This document shows, in pieces, positions 40,343-59,578 of a DNA stretch of 64,000 nt (positions within the stretch are counted from its first letter, which is position 1; every line of letters starts with the position of its first letter). Below the pieces are notes generated by a model. That model was not told where the DNA came from. It saw nothing but the letters and a program-made list of their open reading frames with translations, and did not search any database. Made by a program: the position numbers and the translations under genes. The stretch is from a virus: positions 32,001-96,000 of the IMG/VR virus record IMGVR_UViG_3300025137_000020. The stretch is one strand, 5' to 3'.

Positions 40343-41842
40343 CTAATAACCTCCACCGCCACCAGAAGGAGCACCGCCACCAGAAGGAGCACCGCCACCA
40401 CCAGCAGAACCACCTGATGAAAAACCTCCACCACCACCAGTAGAAGCAGTAGATATGATTCCATTAGTACTTCCTACCCGAGTAAGACCTTGATTGAGTT
40501 TCCGTTTAAATTCTTTTACAAAATCTTCAATTAATTCAGGCCGGACAATTTTAATTCGACTTTTTTCATCATTCACACGTATTGCTGATTGATAATTACT
40601 AACATAATTCATTGGTTCTTGACCTTCTACTGCAAGTTCATTTCCATATGTTAAGTATTTGTATTCGCCATCAGCGTCAAGATATTGTTTTCGCTGAATA
40701 CCGTTTAGCATATCATGCGCATTAATTTTATCGTCAAGATTTGCTGGGTCACCGCCTTGTCTGTAATAATATGCAGGGGCATTTCTTGCTGAAACAAATG
40801 AATGTTCTTTACCATCGGCTTGGCGTCTATACGGCTGAAGACCATACCACTTCATGTTTCCGTTAACGTACCAAGGAGTAAAATAATTTCTAAAAACGTT
40901 TAATGCAGCTTGAGTTCTTCCAATAGAAACATCTCTCGTCTGGTCTTGAAATTCTCTTAGAGGTAAATTATTATAGGCTAGTATATTACCGTCTACAGTA
41001 GTTTGGTTAGCTTGGCCAATAATTTGTGTTTCGAACCACTCAAATAAATGTTCACACCATTCAACTCTTTCTGCCGTCATAAGATTCTTATAAAACGGAC
41101 CCGGTTCCATGTGATTCGCACCGTCGCCTTCCCTATAACCATTCTCCGAATTTTCTCCTATAATTGGCCAATCGTTAAACGTAAATGACATCGTACCTTG
41201 ATGTGCCTCGCTAGCCCATGTTCCTAACGCGTTTTGCTGAAAATTTAAAACGGGGGTTTGTAATAAAGTGTTCTTTAACTCTAATTTAGCATCACCCATG
41301 AACAAATTTCTATTAGAAAAATCTTTTAGGTATAATTGATTTAGCCCTTGGTCCCATTTTACAATTGAAGCCGTGGAAAAATTTCTATAAACTTTTAAAT
41401 CTTCGTAAGATAAATCTAAACCCGCTAAGCTATTTGATATATGCTCGTATTCTTTAGTTTCGGGGTCATTGTCTTCTTCTAATTGTCCCGTCGCTACAAC
41501 AATCTTATCTCTAATAACTGGGTTTAACGTAAATACGCCAATATTATCATACTCATTTGTAAATTCTGTTTCAATAGAAGAAGAGGCTTGAGGCCAATCA
41601 TCTAAACCAGCTTTTAAACTTTCATTTATAATAAAGAACGTCCAATAATAATCTGGTGTACCATATAGCCTTTGCGATAAATTGTCTGGTCTTTCACCAT
41701 CTCCGACCGTTATCAATCGATACGATGCAATATCAGAAGCGAGAATGTCATTAACGTCTACGTGGCGGAATAAATCAACAATCGCTTTAGGCTGATTGCC
41801 TATTTGTAATTGTGTAAATGGAAATTGGCTGAAAAAACTCAT
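40343..41842 (-). CDS. gp53: Baseplate wedge subunit gp53 (enlarged)
   Basis: FFSQFP, GERPDNLSQRLYGTPDYYWTFFIIN...DWP, VSNYQ...NDEKSRIKIVRP. Confidence 0.88.
   Translation of the reverse strand: MSFFSQFPFTQLQIGNQPKAIVDLFRHVDVNDILASDIASYRLITVGDGERPDNLSQRLYGTPDYYWTFFIINESLKAGLDDWPQASSSIETEFTNEYDNIGVFTLNPVIRDKIVVATGQLEEDNDPETKEYEHISNSLAGLDLSYEDLKVYRNFSTASIVKWDQGLNQLYLKDFSNRNLFMGDAKLELKNTLLQTPVLNFQQNALGTWASEAHQGTMSFTFNDWPIIGENSENGYREGDGANHMEPGPFYKNLMTAERVEWCEHLFEWFETQIIGQANQTTVDGNILAYNNLPLREFQDQTRDVSIGRTQAALNVFRNYFTPWYVNGNMKWYGLQPYRRQADGKEHSFVSARNAPAYYYRQGGDPANLDDKINAHDMLNGIQRKQYLDADGEYKYLTYGNELAVEGQEPMNYVSNYQSAIRVNDEKSRIKIVRPELIEDFVKEFKRKLNQGLTRVGSTNGIISTASTGGGGGFSSGGSAGGGGAPSGGGAPSGGGGGY
40353..40400. 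repeat. 18-bp tandem repeat encoding the Gly-rich gp53 tail (GGGAPS x2)
   Basis: accgccaccagaaggagc occurs twice in tandem, followed by a partial third copy. Confidence 0.8.
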
Positions 41843-42999
41843 AGTACTCTTTGGTCCTTGTTATATGCTTTGTCGACCCCACCACCACCTTTGACCAGTC
41901 CGACATCCGTTTCAACAAATCCTTCTCCATAATTAAGAGCGGTGGCACGGGATGTTCCTTTATTACTAATGCCCCTTGCATTCATCATATCGTCGTCATC
42001 AGCACCTTCAGTACTATATTTTTCAATCATATTGTGAAGGTTATCGATATCGGTTCTTTCTAGAGCTCTTGCTTCTTGGAATGTCATTGATATATCGACT
42101 TCAAGTGGTGCACCATCTACGTGCCATACAGGCGCAGTAGTATTGAACGTAGAATTAAAATTTTGAAGGTAGCATGCCATGATACCAGGCAAAAATTTAT
42201 TTGTCATAACACCCTTATCATTAATTCCTGTTAAAAATTCAATTTCCCATATAGCAGGATATTGTAAAAAACCAGCAGAATCTGATTTACCTTGATTTAA
42301 TCTTCCGGCGTACATATATCTTCTAAATCTATGATGTATATGTCTAATTGCCAATGCTTCTTCTTGACTATCTGCAATCATTTTGAAATTAAAGGTAAAA
42401 GAACGAATACCAGACCCTTGGAATGCAGTATTTTGAAATGGATTAGCAACGATTCGATTTGCAAATGTAACTTTATCTACAAACCCTTCAGCTCCTGCTA
42501 ACTTAGCTCCAGCAATTCCTAATTTACCTAAGGCCTGAACAATAGTACCACTTTTAGTAAAATTGCCACCAAGTGAAGCAACACCAGCATCTTTGTTACC
42601 TTCTGTTCTATTTAATCCATCACTCAATCCCGCACCGAACATTCCTAAATCAATAGTAGAAAGCGCTGCATTATCAGCAAATGCGATATTAGCAGGACAT
42701 GGAAAATATGTAGCTCTTCGTACTAAATTAAATATTTTTTCTCCACTTTTTTTAATGTCTTCTCGTTCAAAACAAGTAAAGCGAACCTGCGGCCGGGCAG
42801 TATTAGAATTTAAATTTAGAGGATATCTTAAGTCCTCTCTAGATACTACGGTCCTGTCTGGTATTAGAGCGTCAGCTCCTTGGCCTAAAAGATTTCCTTT
42901 AGTAATTGCACCTTCTCCAGTTGGTTTGACAGAGGTTTGCTTGTTCTGGCCAAGCCCGAGTACATCTGAGCCGAAGCTTTGGGAACTCCAACCAGCCAT
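41839..42999 (-). CDS. gp48: Baseplate tail-tube cap gp48
   Basis: LRYPL, NPFQNTAFQGSGIRSFTFNFKMIADSQEEA, FLQYPAIWEIEF, DGAPLEVDISMTFQE. Confidence 0.88.
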   Translation of the reverse strand: MAGWSSQSFGSDVLGLGQNKQTSVKPTGEGAITKGNLLGQGADALIPDRTVVSREDLRYPLNLNSNTARPQVRFTCFEREDIKKSGEKIFNLVRRATYFPCPANIAFADNAALSTIDLGMFGAGLSDGLNRTEGNKDAGVASLGGNFTKSGTIVQALGKLGIAGAKLAGAEGFVDKVTFANRIVANPFQNTAFQGSGIRSFTFNFKMIADSQEEALAIRHIHHRFRRYMYAGRLNQGKSDSAGFLQYPAIWEIEFLTGINDKGVMTNKFLPGIMACYLQNFNSTFNTTAPVWHVDGAPLEVDISMTFQEARALERTDIDNLHNMIEKYSTEGADDDDMMNARGISNKGTSRATALNYGEGFVETDVGLVKGGGGVDKAYNKDQRVL

Positions 43000-43514: not shown

Positions 43515-44105
43515 ATGGCAACGTCTTTATTAAAAAAGTTTGAGGGTGGATTATCTTATAATGAGATTGAATCCTATACGTCTAAAGCCCGCACTTGGTA
43601 TTTAAACGAATTACAAGGTATGCGGATGAATAGACAAGCTCTGATTAGAGACCCCGAAACAATTAAAAAAGCGAGGCCATTGCCAGGAAGAATGTTCATG
43701 TTTTTTTATGACGCTAAGCATAAAGCTACTTTGCCATACTACGATCGTTTTCCGCTAATTCTTATGGTTGAATCCGCAGCACCTAAAAAAGGTTTTTACG
43801 GTTTAAATTTTCATTACTTAGATTATAGAAAAAGAGCAATTCTCCTTTCAAGACTTTTACAGTATTCAAATAACAAAAAATACGACGAATCAACTCGATT
43901 GAGATTGAGTTATAAATTATTAAAGGGCGCATCTAAGTTGGCCGCATTCAAACCATGCTTTAAGCACTATTTACCTAGCCAAATAAAAAGCCAAATAAAA
44001 ATGGTTCCGGCTGATTATTGGGAAACCGCACTATTCTTTCCGAGTGAACAATTTAAAGGAGCATCAAAAAATGCAGTATTTTCTGATAGTAGGAGACAAA
44101 TCTAA
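43515..44105 (+). CDS. gp2: DNA end protector protein gp2
   Basis: PGRMFMFFYDAKHKATLPYYDRFPLI, GLNFHYL, KPCFKHYL. Confidence 0.93.
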   Translation: MATSLLKKFEGGLSYNEIESYTSKARTWYLNELQGMRMNRQALIRDPETIKKARPLPGRMFMFFYDAKHKATLPYYDRFPLILMVESAAPKKGFYGLNFHYLDYRKRAILLSRLLQYSNNKKYDESTRLRLSYKLLKGASKLAAFKPCFKHYLPSQIKSQIKMVPADYWETALFFPSEQFKGASKNAVFSDSRRQI

Positions 44106-44800
44106 TGGGATTATTTGATTCAATAAAAAAATTAGCTAGTAATGGCGGACAGGGCCATCGGGTTGATGACTTAAAAGCTGTTATTGGTAAAAGAGGCGGT
44201 ATCGCAAAAACCAATCGGTTTGTTGTGATCATGACCCCACCAGCAGCTACGTTGCTCAATAAAGATTTTAAAGGACTTCTTTTTCAAGGTCTTACTGGTA
44301 ATTTAGGACTAAATGATTTCTTTAACGACCCACGAGATATAGCGATGCTTTGCAGGAGCTGTACATTACCTGGACGCTCAATAAATACTCTAGAATTTCC
44401 AAAAGAAGGTTATAAAAATCAGGTAAAATATCCAACCTCATATGTAAATGAAGACGTGAGTTTTAATTTTCTGCTAACAAATGATTATTATATGAAAAAG
44501 GTTTTTGACGATTGGCAAGCTTTAGTTTTTGACCAAACTAATCATACTATTTCTTATAAGACGACTTATACGTCTGATGTTATTATTCAACAATTAGATC
44601 AAGATAATAATGTAGTATTTGGCGTAAAATTAAGTAATGCATATCCAACAGCAATTAATAGTATTGCATTAGACAATAATCAATCAGACGCGGTTCAAGA
44701 ACTCCAAGTAACAATGACATACGATGACTTTGCACCTGAAGGCGCACTAAGTTCTATTGTATCAGGTCTAAAAGAAGTATTAGACTTCAAATTATTTTAA
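44105..44800 (+). CDS. gp54: Tail-tube initiator (gp54/gp19-like fold)
   Basis: GIAKTNRFVV, CRSCTLPGR, KKVFDDWQ, IQQLD, LSNAYPTAINSIAL, LQVTMTY. Confidence 0.75.
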   Translation: MGLFDSIKKLASNGGQGHRVDDLKAVIGKRGGIAKTNRFVVIMTPPAATLLNKDFKGLLFQGLTGNLGLNDFFNDPRDIAMLCRSCTLPGRSINTLEFPKEGYKNQVKYPTSYVNEDVSFNFLLTNDYYMKKVFDDWQALVFDQTNHTISYKTTYTSDVIIQQLDQDNNVVFGVKLSNAYPTAINSIALDNNQSDAVQELQVTMTYDDFAPEGALSSIVSGLKEVLDFKLF

Positions 44801-44832: not shown

Positions 44833-45540
44833 ATGGCACTACCTAAATTAGAAACCCCTACCTATGAGACAACTATTCCGTCTACAGGTAAGACGATTGA
44901 GTATCGACCTTTTCTTGTAAAAGAAGAAAAAATATTGATGATGGCTCAAGAATCGCAGGACACTGCGCAAGCAATTGGAGCATTGAAAAAAATTATTAGC
45001 TCTTGTACGTTTGGAAAGGTCGACCCTAACGAGTTGACTACATACGACGCGGAGTTCTTATTTCTTCAATTGCGAATTAAAAGTGTTGGAGAAACTGTTG
45101 AATTTCAAATTAAGTGCAGTGATCCAGATTGTGACGGAATGACTGACGTTATTGTAGACTTAACTCAGGTTGACGTAATAATGCCTGAGGAACCGCCAGT
45201 AACTAATATTAAGTTAAATGATAACATCGGTATGACACTTAAAGAAGTTACGCTTAAAGATGCAATAGGTTTATCTGGCAAAGAAATGGAGGATATTACC
45301 GGCCTTGTTGCGACAGTAATTGACACAATATACGACGACGAAAAGGTCTATAATGTTAAAGACGTACCAAAGAAAGAACTGGCTACATTTATTGATTCGC
45401 TTAATCACAATCAACTAGAGCTCGTAACAGAATTTATACAGAAGCAACCACAAATTAAAAAGGAAATAAGATATACATGCGTAAAATGCGGTAAAGAAAA
45501 TGTTATAGTGCTAAGCGGCCTACAGGATTTTTTCGCCTAG
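44833..45540 (+). CDS. gp26: Baseplate hub assembly protein gp26
   Basis: MALPKLETPTY..TIPSTGK.I.YRPFLVKEEKILMMA, LFLQLRIKSVGE, two Cys pairs (CSDPDC, CVKC), ends LSGLQDFFA. Confidence 0.92.
   Translation: MALPKLETPTYETTIPSTGKTIEYRPFLVKEEKILMMAQESQDTAQAIGALKKIISSCTFGKVDPNELTTYDAEFLFLQLRIKSVGETVEFQIKCSDPDCDGMTDVIVDLTQVDVIMPEEPPVTNIKLNDNIGMTLKEVTLKDAIGLSGKEMEDITGLVATVIDTIYDDEKVYNVKDVPKKELATFIDSLNHNQLELVTEFIQKQPQIKKEIRYTCVKCGKENVIVLSGLQDFFA
45528..45534 (+). promoter_or_regulatory. Candidate -1 ribosomal frameshift heptamer T_TTT_TTC
   Basis: gp26 frame reads CAG GAT TTT TTC GCC TAG; the X_XXY_YYZ heptamer is correctly phased and the -1 frame is open into gp51. Confidence 0.7.
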
Positions 45541-45728
45541 GCCTTTCACATGATTCATTAACTAATCATTATCAAACTAACTTTTCTATGATGCAGCATC
45601 ATAAATATAGCTTGACAGAATTAGAAACCATGTTACCGTGGGAAAGGCAAATTTACACAACCCTACTCATTCAACACATTAAAGAAGAAAACGATAAAAT
45701 AGAACAGCAAAATAGAAGCTCTGCCTAA
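45528..45728 (+). CDS. gp51: gp51-like hub assembly catalyst frame (probably reached by -1 frameshift from gp26)
   Basis: Hand translation: FFRLGLSHDSLTNHYQTNFSMMQHHKYSLTELETMLPWERQIYTTLLIQHIKEENDKIEQQNRSSA*; first ATG only at 45588; stop overlaps the next ATG. Confidence 0.8.
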   Translation, partial: FFRLGLSHDSLTNHYQTNFSMMQHHKYSLTELETMLPWERQIYTTLLIQHIKEENDKIEQQNRSSA

Positions 45729-47866
45729 TGGATATAGACAATATAATCAAAAATAGTAAAACGCTATCGCAATTGACGAAAGATATTTCGAAAATTGCTA
45801 AAAATGGCGGCGGTGGCGGTGTGGGTGGAAAGGTCGCTCAAGGCGCGACAGGAATTAATCGAATTGACCAAAAGATTGATGATGTCAAATCTGCGCTTGG
45901 TAATAATACTACGGTTCAGTTTTTTAAAGACCCCGCCGCAGTGTTAGGGAAAGGAATGAGAGGAGTTATACAACCTTTTACTGACTTTTTGCCAAATATG
46001 GTAGATCAGCTTAAAAAATTTAATCCATTTGGTAATGGAAGTAATAAAGGAGTAGCTAAATCATTAAGTCGCTTATCAGAAGCTACTGAAAATAATACAA
46101 GATTGCTTGAAATCATATCTGGTAATACTTTAAGTGGAGATGAAATTGCGGGTGGTATGCAAGAAGCATTAGGCCAGACCGTAATGAGAGATTCGGTTAA
46201 GCAATTGAATTTACAAGATTCTTCGTTAAAAGAACTTTCGCTGCTGAGAACGCAATTCGCTGTATTGCCAGACCAAATGATAGGTGTATTAGCTAAACCA
46301 ATCAATAGTGCTATCGGCGCTTCGATGAAGGGTGTAAAGAATTTTGGTAATATGCTGTTCAAAAAAGATAAAGGCGAGGAGCAAGTTAAAGGCCTATCGC
46401 AGGTTCAGCATGAGCTAGCTCAATTTGGTAAAGTGTCCAGCAGTGATACTGAAGCAGAAATGCACCAAAAACAATCTCATCACAATGAATTATTGCAGGC
46501 TAACAATTCACTTCTTAGTGGTTCAATGGCAGATAAACTATCGGCAGAACACCTCCACAATATCGAAAACATTCTATTAGGAGATACTGACGTTAGCCAA
46601 GAAAAATTAAAATTTGATATTCGCGAGAGAAGACGAATGTTGGCTCAAGACCAAGCGATGGCTGAGTCAAAGCGCGATGATATGACTCGCCAAACCGAGC
46701 TGTTCGAGGGCATCGGCGCTAAACTAGAAGCTATTGGTGATGCTTTAGGCATGGGTGGTGAGAATGGTAAAACCTCTAAAAAAGCAGGCGGTATATTTGA
46801 TTGGATTAAGAAAAACTTTATGGGCATTGGCGGCGGATTACTTGCTGGTGCTACAATTGGCGGTGGTGCTATCAGTGGATTATTCTTAGGAATGATTAAT
46901 GTACTAACTGAAGGCTTTAGGATTTTGGGACGAAGACGAGTAATGGTTACTCGAGGAGCTGGTGTATTAGCTATTATGGGGCTTTCTCTTCTTCCATTCG
47001 CGGGGTCTTTAGCTGTATTAAATAAAGCAATGAATGGATTTACTTTAAAGAAAGTGGGAGTCTTCGCTGCGATGTTAGGAGTCTTAGGAGCAACTATAGC
47101 TGGATTCGCGATTGCTATTGCGACTGGCGTTGGTGGCGTTGCGGTGGCGGGAGCAATTGGTTTATTAGCTCTTTTAGGCGCGGCTTTGCTGCCATTTGGC
47201 AAAGCTATTAGTATGGCAGGAGATGGTATTGAACCTGCAGCCGACTTATTCTCAGCGCTTGCAGCGGTTAAATGGAGTTCTTTCTTTTTAGCTGGCCCAG
47301 CATTAAATGCATTAGCTTCTTCTTTAAGAGCCTTTAAAGGATTGCCCGATATTGCAGGTGATAATTCTTCCGCATTTGGTATGATCGGTGGAATTAGTGA
47401 CAAAATTACTGCATCATTGCCCAATGCGGCTAAGCCAATTCAAGATTTTAATACAGCTCTTGCCGGACTCTCTTCTATAAAACTTGACAATAGTATTGGC
47501 AATGCTCTAAGTGGAATATATAAAGCTGTAGATAAGCGAGACTTTCAGAAAAGACTAGAAGCTGCTGGTAAAGGTATGAAATCACTACTAGGTTCTATTA
47601 ATTCAGAGCTTAACAAGATGGAAGGTCGAGCACTTGATAAAGTCATGCAACTATTAAATAGTGGTGAAACGTCTATCGATTTGATTGGGTCAACTAATAC
47701 TACTGGTGCACAAATGTACGCTGGAAGTGCTATGGGCCCTAATGGAAATGGAGGGTCATTTATTAATGTTGATAATTCTACTGGTGGTACTAGTACAAAT
47801 ATTCAAGTTACTCAACAGACTCTACCGCACGTTAATGATACTACGATGTCATTATTACGCGCATAA
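45728..47866 (+). CDS. Tape measure protein candidate (gp29-like)
   Basis: 712 aa, mostly helical, Ala/Gly-rich hydrophobic segment in the central to C-terminal part; follows tube initiator, gp26 and gp51. Confidence 0.68.
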   Translation: MDIDNIIKNSKTLSQLTKDISKIAKNGGGGGVGGKVAQGATGINRIDQKIDDVKSALGNNTTVQFFKDPAAVLGKGMRGVIQPFTDFLPNMVDQLKKFNPFGNGSNKGVAKSLSRLSEATENNTRLLEIISGNTLSGDEIAGGMQEALGQTVMRDSVKQLNLQDSSLKELSLLRTQFAVLPDQMIGVLAKPINSAIGASMKGVKNFGNMLFKKDKGEEQVKGLSQVQHELAQFGKVSSSDTEAEMHQKQSHHNELLQANNSLLSGSMADKLSAEHLHNIENILLGDTDVSQEKLKFDIRERRRMLAQDQAMAESKRDDMTRQTELFEGIGAKLEAIGDALGMGGENGKTSKKAGGIFDWIKKNFMGIGGGLLAGATIGGGAISGLFLGMINVLTEGFRILGRRRVMVTRGAGVLAIMGLSLLPFAGSLAVLNKAMNGFTLKKVGVFAAMLGVLGATIAGFAIAIATGVGGVAVAGAIGLLALLGAALLPFGKAISMAGDGIEPAADLFSALAAVKWSSFFLAGPALNALASSLRAFKGLPDIAGDNSSAFGMIGGISDKITASLPNAAKPIQDFNTALAGLSSIKLDNSIGNALSGIYKAVDKRDFQKRLEAAGKGMKSLLGSINSELNKMEGRALDKVMQLLNSGETSIDLIGSTNTTGAQMYAGSAMGPNGNGGSFINVDNSTGGTSTNIQVTQQTLPHVNDTTMSLLRA

Positions 47867-47873
47867 TATAAAA

Positions 47874-47950
47874 TGGTACTCCGAGCAGGACTCGAACCTG
47901 CGACCCACGGTTTAGAAAACCGTTGCTCTATCCAACTGAGCTATCGGAGC
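47874..47950 (-). tRNA. tRNA-Arg (anticodon TCT)
   Basis: Reverse complement GCTCCGATAGCTCAGTTGGATAGAGCA-ACGGT TT TCT AA ACCGT-GGGTCGCAGGTTCGAGTCCTGC-TCGGAGTACCA; cloverleaf with encoded CCA. Confidence 0.95.
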
Positions 47951-59501: not shown

Positions 59502-59578
59502 TGGCACCCCTACACGGATTCGAACCGTGGTTGACGCGATGAAAACGCGGTGTCCTAACCAGACTAGACGATAGGGGC
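59502..59578 (-). tRNA. tRNA-Glu (anticodon TTC)
   Basis: Reverse complement GCCCCTATCGTCTAGTCTGGTTAGGACA-CCGCG TT TTC AT CGCGT-CAACCACGGTTCGAATCCGTG-TAGGGGTGCCA; encoded CCA. Confidence 0.93.

Follow-up and report, generated by a model that had tools for sequence, protein, structure and literature searches.

In the genome of an uncultured marine T4-like phage, the genes known as '26' and '51' are very probably one tail-assembly-chaperone (TAC) gene that is decoded in two ways by programmed -1 ribosomal frameshifting. The locus lies in a stretch of 64 kb, referred to here as the window. In the proposed model, in which the slippage, how often it happens and what both protein forms bind are inferred, most ribosomes would read 44833-45540 and stop at the TAG, yielding a 235-aa short form (TAC-N). 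In a minority, the two Phe-tRNAs on UUU UUC (45529-45534) would move back by one base and re-pair on UUU UUU (45528-45533). These ribosomes would then read 64 codons in the -1 frame, up to the TAA at 45726-45728, and would produce a 298-aa long form (TAC-NC) whose first 234 residues are common to TAC-N. By analogy with lambda gpG/gpGT and T4 gp26/gp51, both forms may act on the hub and on the tape-measure-like product of the following gene, and neither would be part of the finished virion. We show the signal with its reading phase and its conservation, coding conservation in the -1 frame that starts at the slip site, a colinear long form in T4-type phages and a TAC-like fold.

The gp26-like ORF extends over 44833-45540 on the + strand (235 aa, TAG at 45538-45540), and its 3' end (45520-45540) reads ...CTA CAG GAT TTT TTC GCC TAG. 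Counted from the ATG at 44833, the relevant codons are GAT (45526-45528), TTT (45529-45531) and TTC (45532-45534), which places the slippery heptamer T_TTT_TTC at 45528-45534 on the + strand in the X_XXY_YYZ phase, with the 0-frame stop one codon further on. An earlier reading of the window, made from the sequence only, had pointed to a correctly phased heptamer just before the gp26 stop, and it is borne out. The -1 frame is open from 45498, ten codons 5' of the heptamer, to the TAA at 45726-45728. Past the slip it comprises 64 codons, reads FFRLGLSHDSLTNHYQTNFSMMQHH... and reaches the start of the next long gene. The predicted transframe product is thus 234 + 64 = 298 aa, the very size (~298 aa) proposed for gp26-51 in the sequence-only reading, and its predicted junction peptide is ...QDFFRLGLSHDSL.... 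The + strand of the window, which has a G+C content of 38%, contains 33 runs of at least six T. The junction is nevertheless more than a chance occurrence, because its T run is correctly phased and only one codon away from a stop, and because the same layout recurs in 67 of 67 distinct homologous junctions.

Conservation of the heptamer was established with a scan of IMG/VR, which gave 80 loci at 38-69% gp26 identity. All 79 loci that reach the stop carry NNT TTT TTY in phase, and wherever the contig is long enough the -1 ORF runs 176-194 nt past the 0-frame stop. Together with five cultured phages (the cyanophages S-RIM8 and S-H9-2, the KVP40-like Vibrio phage phi-pp2, Stenotrophomonas phage Ps15 and Rhizobium phage RHph_I1_18), the IMG/VR loci provide 67 distinct nucleotide contexts. 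Every one of these has NNT TTT TTY/A in the same phase, and NNV TTT TTT occurs in none. The heptamer is spelt TTTTTTC in 40 junctions, TTTTTTT in 26 and TTTTTTA in 1. The codon before Phe-Phe is AGT, AAT, GAT or TCT, so that across the 67 junctions the amino acid varies and the third base is always T. The 0-frame stop follows the heptamer at a distance of 0 codons in 18 junctions, 1 codon in 48 and 9 codons in 1, that is, within 0-1 codon in 66/67. The same arrangement was seen by eye in six further phage records, including Aeromonas phage P19, Sf-FR1, S-BM3 and Pseudomonas phage Milchi. Retention of the heptamer and of the -1 phase, which had been put forward as a check of the frameshift proposal, is thus true of every homologue examined outside the Tevenvirinae and the Ackermannviridae.

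The Phe-Phe dipeptide is itself kept at the protein level, and this explains some of the T run. Elsewhere in the same gp26 genes, Phe is encoded by TTT in 72% of codons, and 60% of Asp, Asn and Ser codons end in T. Because codon usage outside the junction is this much more relaxed, the T run is held invariant at the nucleotide level, beyond what conservation of Phe-Phe in the protein would require.

This invariance also bears on the machine that slips. RNA polymerase could slip on the T6 run and add one U to some transcripts, with the long form then being translated normally from the edited mRNA; such a process would agree with a signal that is a homopolymer of 6-7 T and with the absence of the RNA structure that often accompanies ribosomal -1 shifts. 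However, polymerase slippage needs no reading phase, and a T6 run encoding Phe-Phe could equally be written NNV TTT TTT, a spelling that is never used at the 67 junctions. The invariant phase therefore favours tandem re-pairing of tRNAs over polymerase stuttering. Bacterial polymerase slippage usually needs runs of 8-9 or more, and a run of 6-7 T is short for efficient slippage. Editing by the polymerase is on this evidence very unlikely. An error of assembly or sequencing in the homopolymer, with a single in-frame ORF of 298 aa as the real gene, would have to be considered on the ground that such runs are error-prone on some platforms, but the same two-frame layout, with a 0-frame stop close to the run, recurs at 67 distinct junctions taken from independent metagenomes and from cultured isolates, and an artefact is extremely improbable. 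Other routes to a longer product were considered and rejected. Stop-codon readthrough would end quickly, the 0 frame meeting a TAA six codons past the TAG; the +1 frame is closed within a few codons at all loci checked; and reinitiation past the stop would find no start codon there at most loci.

The remaining rival concerns the -1 frame itself, which gene callers represent as a 46-aa ORF, the small 'gp51' (45588..45728, + strand), starting at ATG 45588. According to this view, which is the one taken in GenBank, the small ORF is an independent gp51 of 46 aa that is initiated at this ATG and is not fused to gp26. Cyanophage records indeed annotate a 'baseplate hub assembly catalyst' of 45-60 aa, and the Met-Met at the position of ATG 45588 is conserved. 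Yet conservation of the peptide does not begin there. The 47 distinct -1 peptides align without gaps and are conserved from the first residue past the slip, following the pattern FF-x-x-x-LSHDSLxNHYxTNFxMMQHHxYSLTEL..MPWER. In the window, 18 conserved residues (LSHDSLxNHYxTNF) sit 5' of ATG 45588, which is the first ATG, GTG or TTG of the -1 frame, and they are as well conserved as those 3' of it. The sequence preceding this ATG is AACTAACTTTTCT, and its inspection revealed no purine-rich element that would qualify as a Shine-Dalgarno sequence. As the sequence-only reading had claimed, the HDSL part therefore lies upstream of the first ATG, and this ATG is without a Shine-Dalgarno.

Start codons are no better placed in the relatives. 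In 46 of the 66 complete junctions, the -1 frame has no ATG, GTG or TTG before offset +60, and in the remaining junctions the starts are scattered at offsets 9, 12, 15, 30, 33, 36, 39 or 51. A conserved start upstream of the HDSL motif, which would have spoken for a separate gene, was thus looked for and not found in these junctions. Annotated starts also differ among records, S-BM3 has no such annotated gene at all, and T4-type gp51 runs colinear with gp26 followed by the extension. A small gp51 with a start of its own does not explain why the 18 residues 5' of the Met-Met are conserved, and we consider it most improbable. Judged from the sequence, the 46-aa ORF is most likely not an independent gene, and the earlier suggestion to this effect is supported by the 18 upstream residues and by the startless junctions.

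Frameshifting in this gene has consequences for annotation, and this is the practical value of the finding. The GenBank records inspected, some of them from 2025, carry either a 'baseplate hub assembly catalyst' of 45-60 aa or nothing, and a joined CDS in none; metagenomic gene catalogues therefore miss the long form of ~298 aa. In Synechococcus phage S-BM3 and Aeromonas phage P19 the conserved -1 extension is present, yet no gene is annotated 3' of gp26.

Family assignments were obtained for both parts of the gene and for several of its neighbours. Directly 5' of the gp26-like ORF, a tail-tube-fold protein of 231 aa is encoded at 44105..44800 on the + strand. It matches phrog_45 'tail tube' (E 4e-38) and scores 29.7 bits against PF06841 Phage_T4_gp19, for which the cut-off is 28.2. 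The syntenic gene of Vibrio phage phi-pp2 is annotated as baseplate-tail tube initiator, and in position the product of 44105..44800 is equivalent to the baseplate tail-tube initiator of T4, gp54. The gp26-like ORF, encoding the predicted TAC-N (44833..45540, + strand), matches PF12322 T4_baseplate (E 1.2e-58; 198.8 bits against a cut-off of 24.5) and phrog_150 'baseplate hub' (E 2e-65), where it covers 5-232 of the 282 profile positions. The -1 extension, or 'gp51' part (45534..45728, + strand; 64 codons and TAA), is the C-terminus of the predicted 298-aa TAC-NC. It matches phrog_634 'baseplate hub assembly catalyst' (gp51) with E 6.8e-29 and phrog_150 at positions 231-281 with E 2.5e-7, so that the gp26-like ORF and the extension sit end to end on one and the same profile. 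When the 105-kb record of the phage was searched in all six frames, phrog_150 positions 3-236 were recovered in one frame and positions 230-281 in the frame -1 to it. Each part occurred once, and the search found no additional gene for a long paralogue in the record, which is only ~59% complete, so that the rest of the genome might still encode one. The first three members of the gene order that had been read from the sequence, namely a tube-like gene, then gp26, then gp51, agree with the phrog_45, PF12322/phrog_150 and phrog_634 matches; the tape measure that completes this order is a putative one.

Downstream, the ATG of a 712-aa gene (45728-47866, + strand) overlaps the TAA of the extension (TAATG). 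The gene occupies the position of the tape measure (T4 gp29), and its product has no PHROG, Pfam or phage-database match (tblastn against 50,697 phage records; PHROG hits at E up to 10 were noise only). By its position, its length and a long Gly/Ala-rich hydrophobic middle part, it is a candidate tape measure gene. At the homologous locus of a Rhizobium phage, one extra small gene separates the gp26/gp51 pair from the gene annotated as tape measure. Neighbouring genes of the window include gp48 (41839-42999, - strand) and gp2 (43515-44105), and a gp32-like ORF was found beyond the 712-aa gene. Two tRNA genes are encoded by the phage, tRNA-Arg(TCT) at 47874-47950 (- strand), which separates the 712-aa gene from the gp32-like gene, and tRNA-Glu(TTC) at 59502-59578 (- strand). 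A megablast search of the four-gene block against the 50,697 phage records returned no match and hence no close cultured relative; the best gp26 identity among these records is 42.5%, to cyanophage S-H9-2.

The Tevenvirinae provide a natural control for the frameshift. In the three phages compared (Karamvirus KMB20, Tequatrovirus PD112 and Roskildevirus Cronus), gene 26 (~209 aa) is distinct from gene 51 (249-250 aa), and the two are transcribed divergently. On phrog_150, Tevenvirinae gp51 covers positions 14-282 and gp26 covers positions 5-234. The N-terminal part of gp51 aligns with gp26 of the window (E 8e-6), and residues 200-244 of Karamvirus gp51 (F|KLLINPDEIF...) align with the window extension from its second residue (F|RLGLSHDSL...; BLASTP E 1e-5). 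The gp51 junction ...VF|KLL... is thereby aligned with FF|RLG of the window, at the slip site. From the profile coverage and the junction alignments, T4-type gp51 is therefore equivalent to the predicted transframe protein and colinear with it. Tevenvirinae gp26 keeps the G-L-x-E-F-F ending, spelt GAA/GAG TTC TTC or TTC TTT, which is non-slippery, and the -1 frame at the end of this gene is gene 25.

A variant of the arrangement was noted in relatives from the Ackermannviridae (Salmonella phage SP1, Klebsiella phage T765, Dickeya phage Ds25CZ, Serratia phage KNP4 and Vibrio phage Kuja). These have a homologous -1 extension (...FHLIFEIDLLSYF...MPWHLD...) but no classical heptamer, and the extension is either unannotated or annotated as a small hypothetical protein. 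Their gp26 genes end in ATT/GTT TTC ATY TRA, or in CTT TTT CAA TAA in Kuja. Going by these endings, a single-tRNA slip on U_UUC or U_UUU would be the sole possible one in this family.

To place the short form structurally, an AlphaFold2 model of the 235-aa protein was built from a 27-sequence alignment (mean pLDDT 87.5). In an exhaustive VIA-align search of 48,161 PDB representatives, the top three matches were tail assembly chaperones, all matched over residues 1-94: 3FGX (Z 7.5, 85 aligned residues, rmsd 3.7), the HK97 tail assembly chaperone 2OB9 (Z 7.0, 83 aligned, rmsd 4.2) and YqbN, 3KLU (Z 6.3, 85 aligned, rmsd 4.3). The next structure, at rank 4, is unrelated and has a Z of 4.6. These three structures are exactly the three named as TACs in PMC9603447. 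Foldseek against the PDB gave no match at E <= 0.001, and a profile of 27 gp26 sequences searched against PDB sequences gave nothing credible, the best hits being capping enzymes at E 0.05. The Z values of 6-7.5 are moderate and concern residues 1-94 alone, but the three chaperones form a group clear of all other matches, and by this measure the modelled N-terminal domain is TAC-like. The proposal that gp26 and gp26-51 are the equivalents of lambda G and GT thereby gains structural support, as the best N-terminal fold matches are three solved TACs. The remainder of the gp26-like protein has weak fold matches to zinc ribbons. Four Cys (95, 100, 216 and 219) lie on two beta-hairpins of the protein, and three of them are conserved at 90% or more. 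The protein thus has a probable zinc-binding domain that has no counterpart in the short solved TACs, whose match is confined to residues 1-94.

A search for a stimulatory RNA structure 3' of the heptamer found none. RNAalifold on 27 junctions predicted 0 pairs, and in 31 single-sequence folds of the 60 nt 3' of the heptamer, z-scores were scattered around 0, with folds no more stable than those of shuffled sequences. Many relatives carry a Shine-Dalgarno-like, GG-rich element 8-10 nt 5' of the heptamer; over the 60 related junctions compared at this position, the median is -5.8 kcal/mol to the anti-SD, which lies in the top 5% of the background. The window's own element (AAGCGGC, within 45510-45523) is weak, at -2.3 kcal/mol, the 31st percentile of the background. 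The signal from this element is confounded, as it overlaps a conserved Gly-Leu motif that is also present in T4-type gp26. Because no conserved downstream RNA structure was found, the likely helpers of the slip are the 0-frame stop 0-1 codon past the heptamer and the SD-like element, the latter in many relatives though scarcely in the window. It is conceivable, although we hold this generalization only tentatively and lean against it, that several phage families share a minimal signal consisting of a U-rich heptamer 0-1 codon before a stop, in which slow termination is the stimulator and no downstream structure is needed, with the Ackermannviridae using a shorter U_UUC or U_UUU. Should this be true, and should it be absent from the 2022 work discussed below, the -1 signals of tail chaperones would include a distinct class that is assisted by the stop.

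Among known systems, E. coli dnaX undergoes tandem -1 slippage on a homopolymeric heptamer that is accompanied by a strong downstream stem-loop. The gene described here resembles dnaX in its homopolymeric heptamer and, in many relatives of the window, in the SD-like element ~8-10 nt upstream. It differs in that the dnaX stem-loop has no counterpart seen here and in that the SD-like element of the window is weak. In lambda, the slippery heptamer is G_GGA_AAG, whereas that of the window is U-rich and lies in a T4-type baseplate hub context. The likeness to lambda gpG/gpGT consists in a short and a long form with a common N-terminus and, according to the structural model, in an N-terminal domain with a TAC-type fold. 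There is no detectable sequence similarity between the two systems, and the short form of the window, at 235 aa, is about twice as long and includes an additional domain with four Cys. According to papers citing Xu, Hendrix and Duda (2004), tail assembly genes of the lambda gpG/gpGT kind share a conserved -1 frameshift.

The closest comparison is with T4 itself. T4 gp26 (208 aa) and gp51 (249 aa) are homologous to the two forms through PF12322, phrog_150 and phrog_634, and as in the window the long form consists of the short-form fold with the same C-terminal extension. Both T4 proteins are hub assembly chaperones, and gp51 is required for hub assembly and is absent from the particle (Leiman et al. 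2010, PMC3004832). Unlike the window, where one gene is very probably read in two frames, phages of the T4 type have two separate, divergently transcribed genes and a non-slippery Phe-Phe. As cited in PMC12846349, Vladimirov, Gautam and Davidson (2022) described slip sites made of poly-T in TAC-N genes of T4-like phages, and as far as these citations go their work concerns the same gene family and the same idea as presented here. According to the PRFect paper (PMC10274946), the same 2022 work reports a short gene and a longer, fused one in some T4-like phages, in place of frameshifting. Both halves, the slip in T4-like phages and the two-gene solution of T4, thus appear from the citing papers to have been published already. 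Together they resolve what had looked like a 'T4 exception' among long-tailed phages, in which a frameshifted tail chaperone gene is near-universal. This point is already in the literature, as is the conclusion that T4 itself has a duplicated gene in place of the slip, which its marine and other relatives retained.
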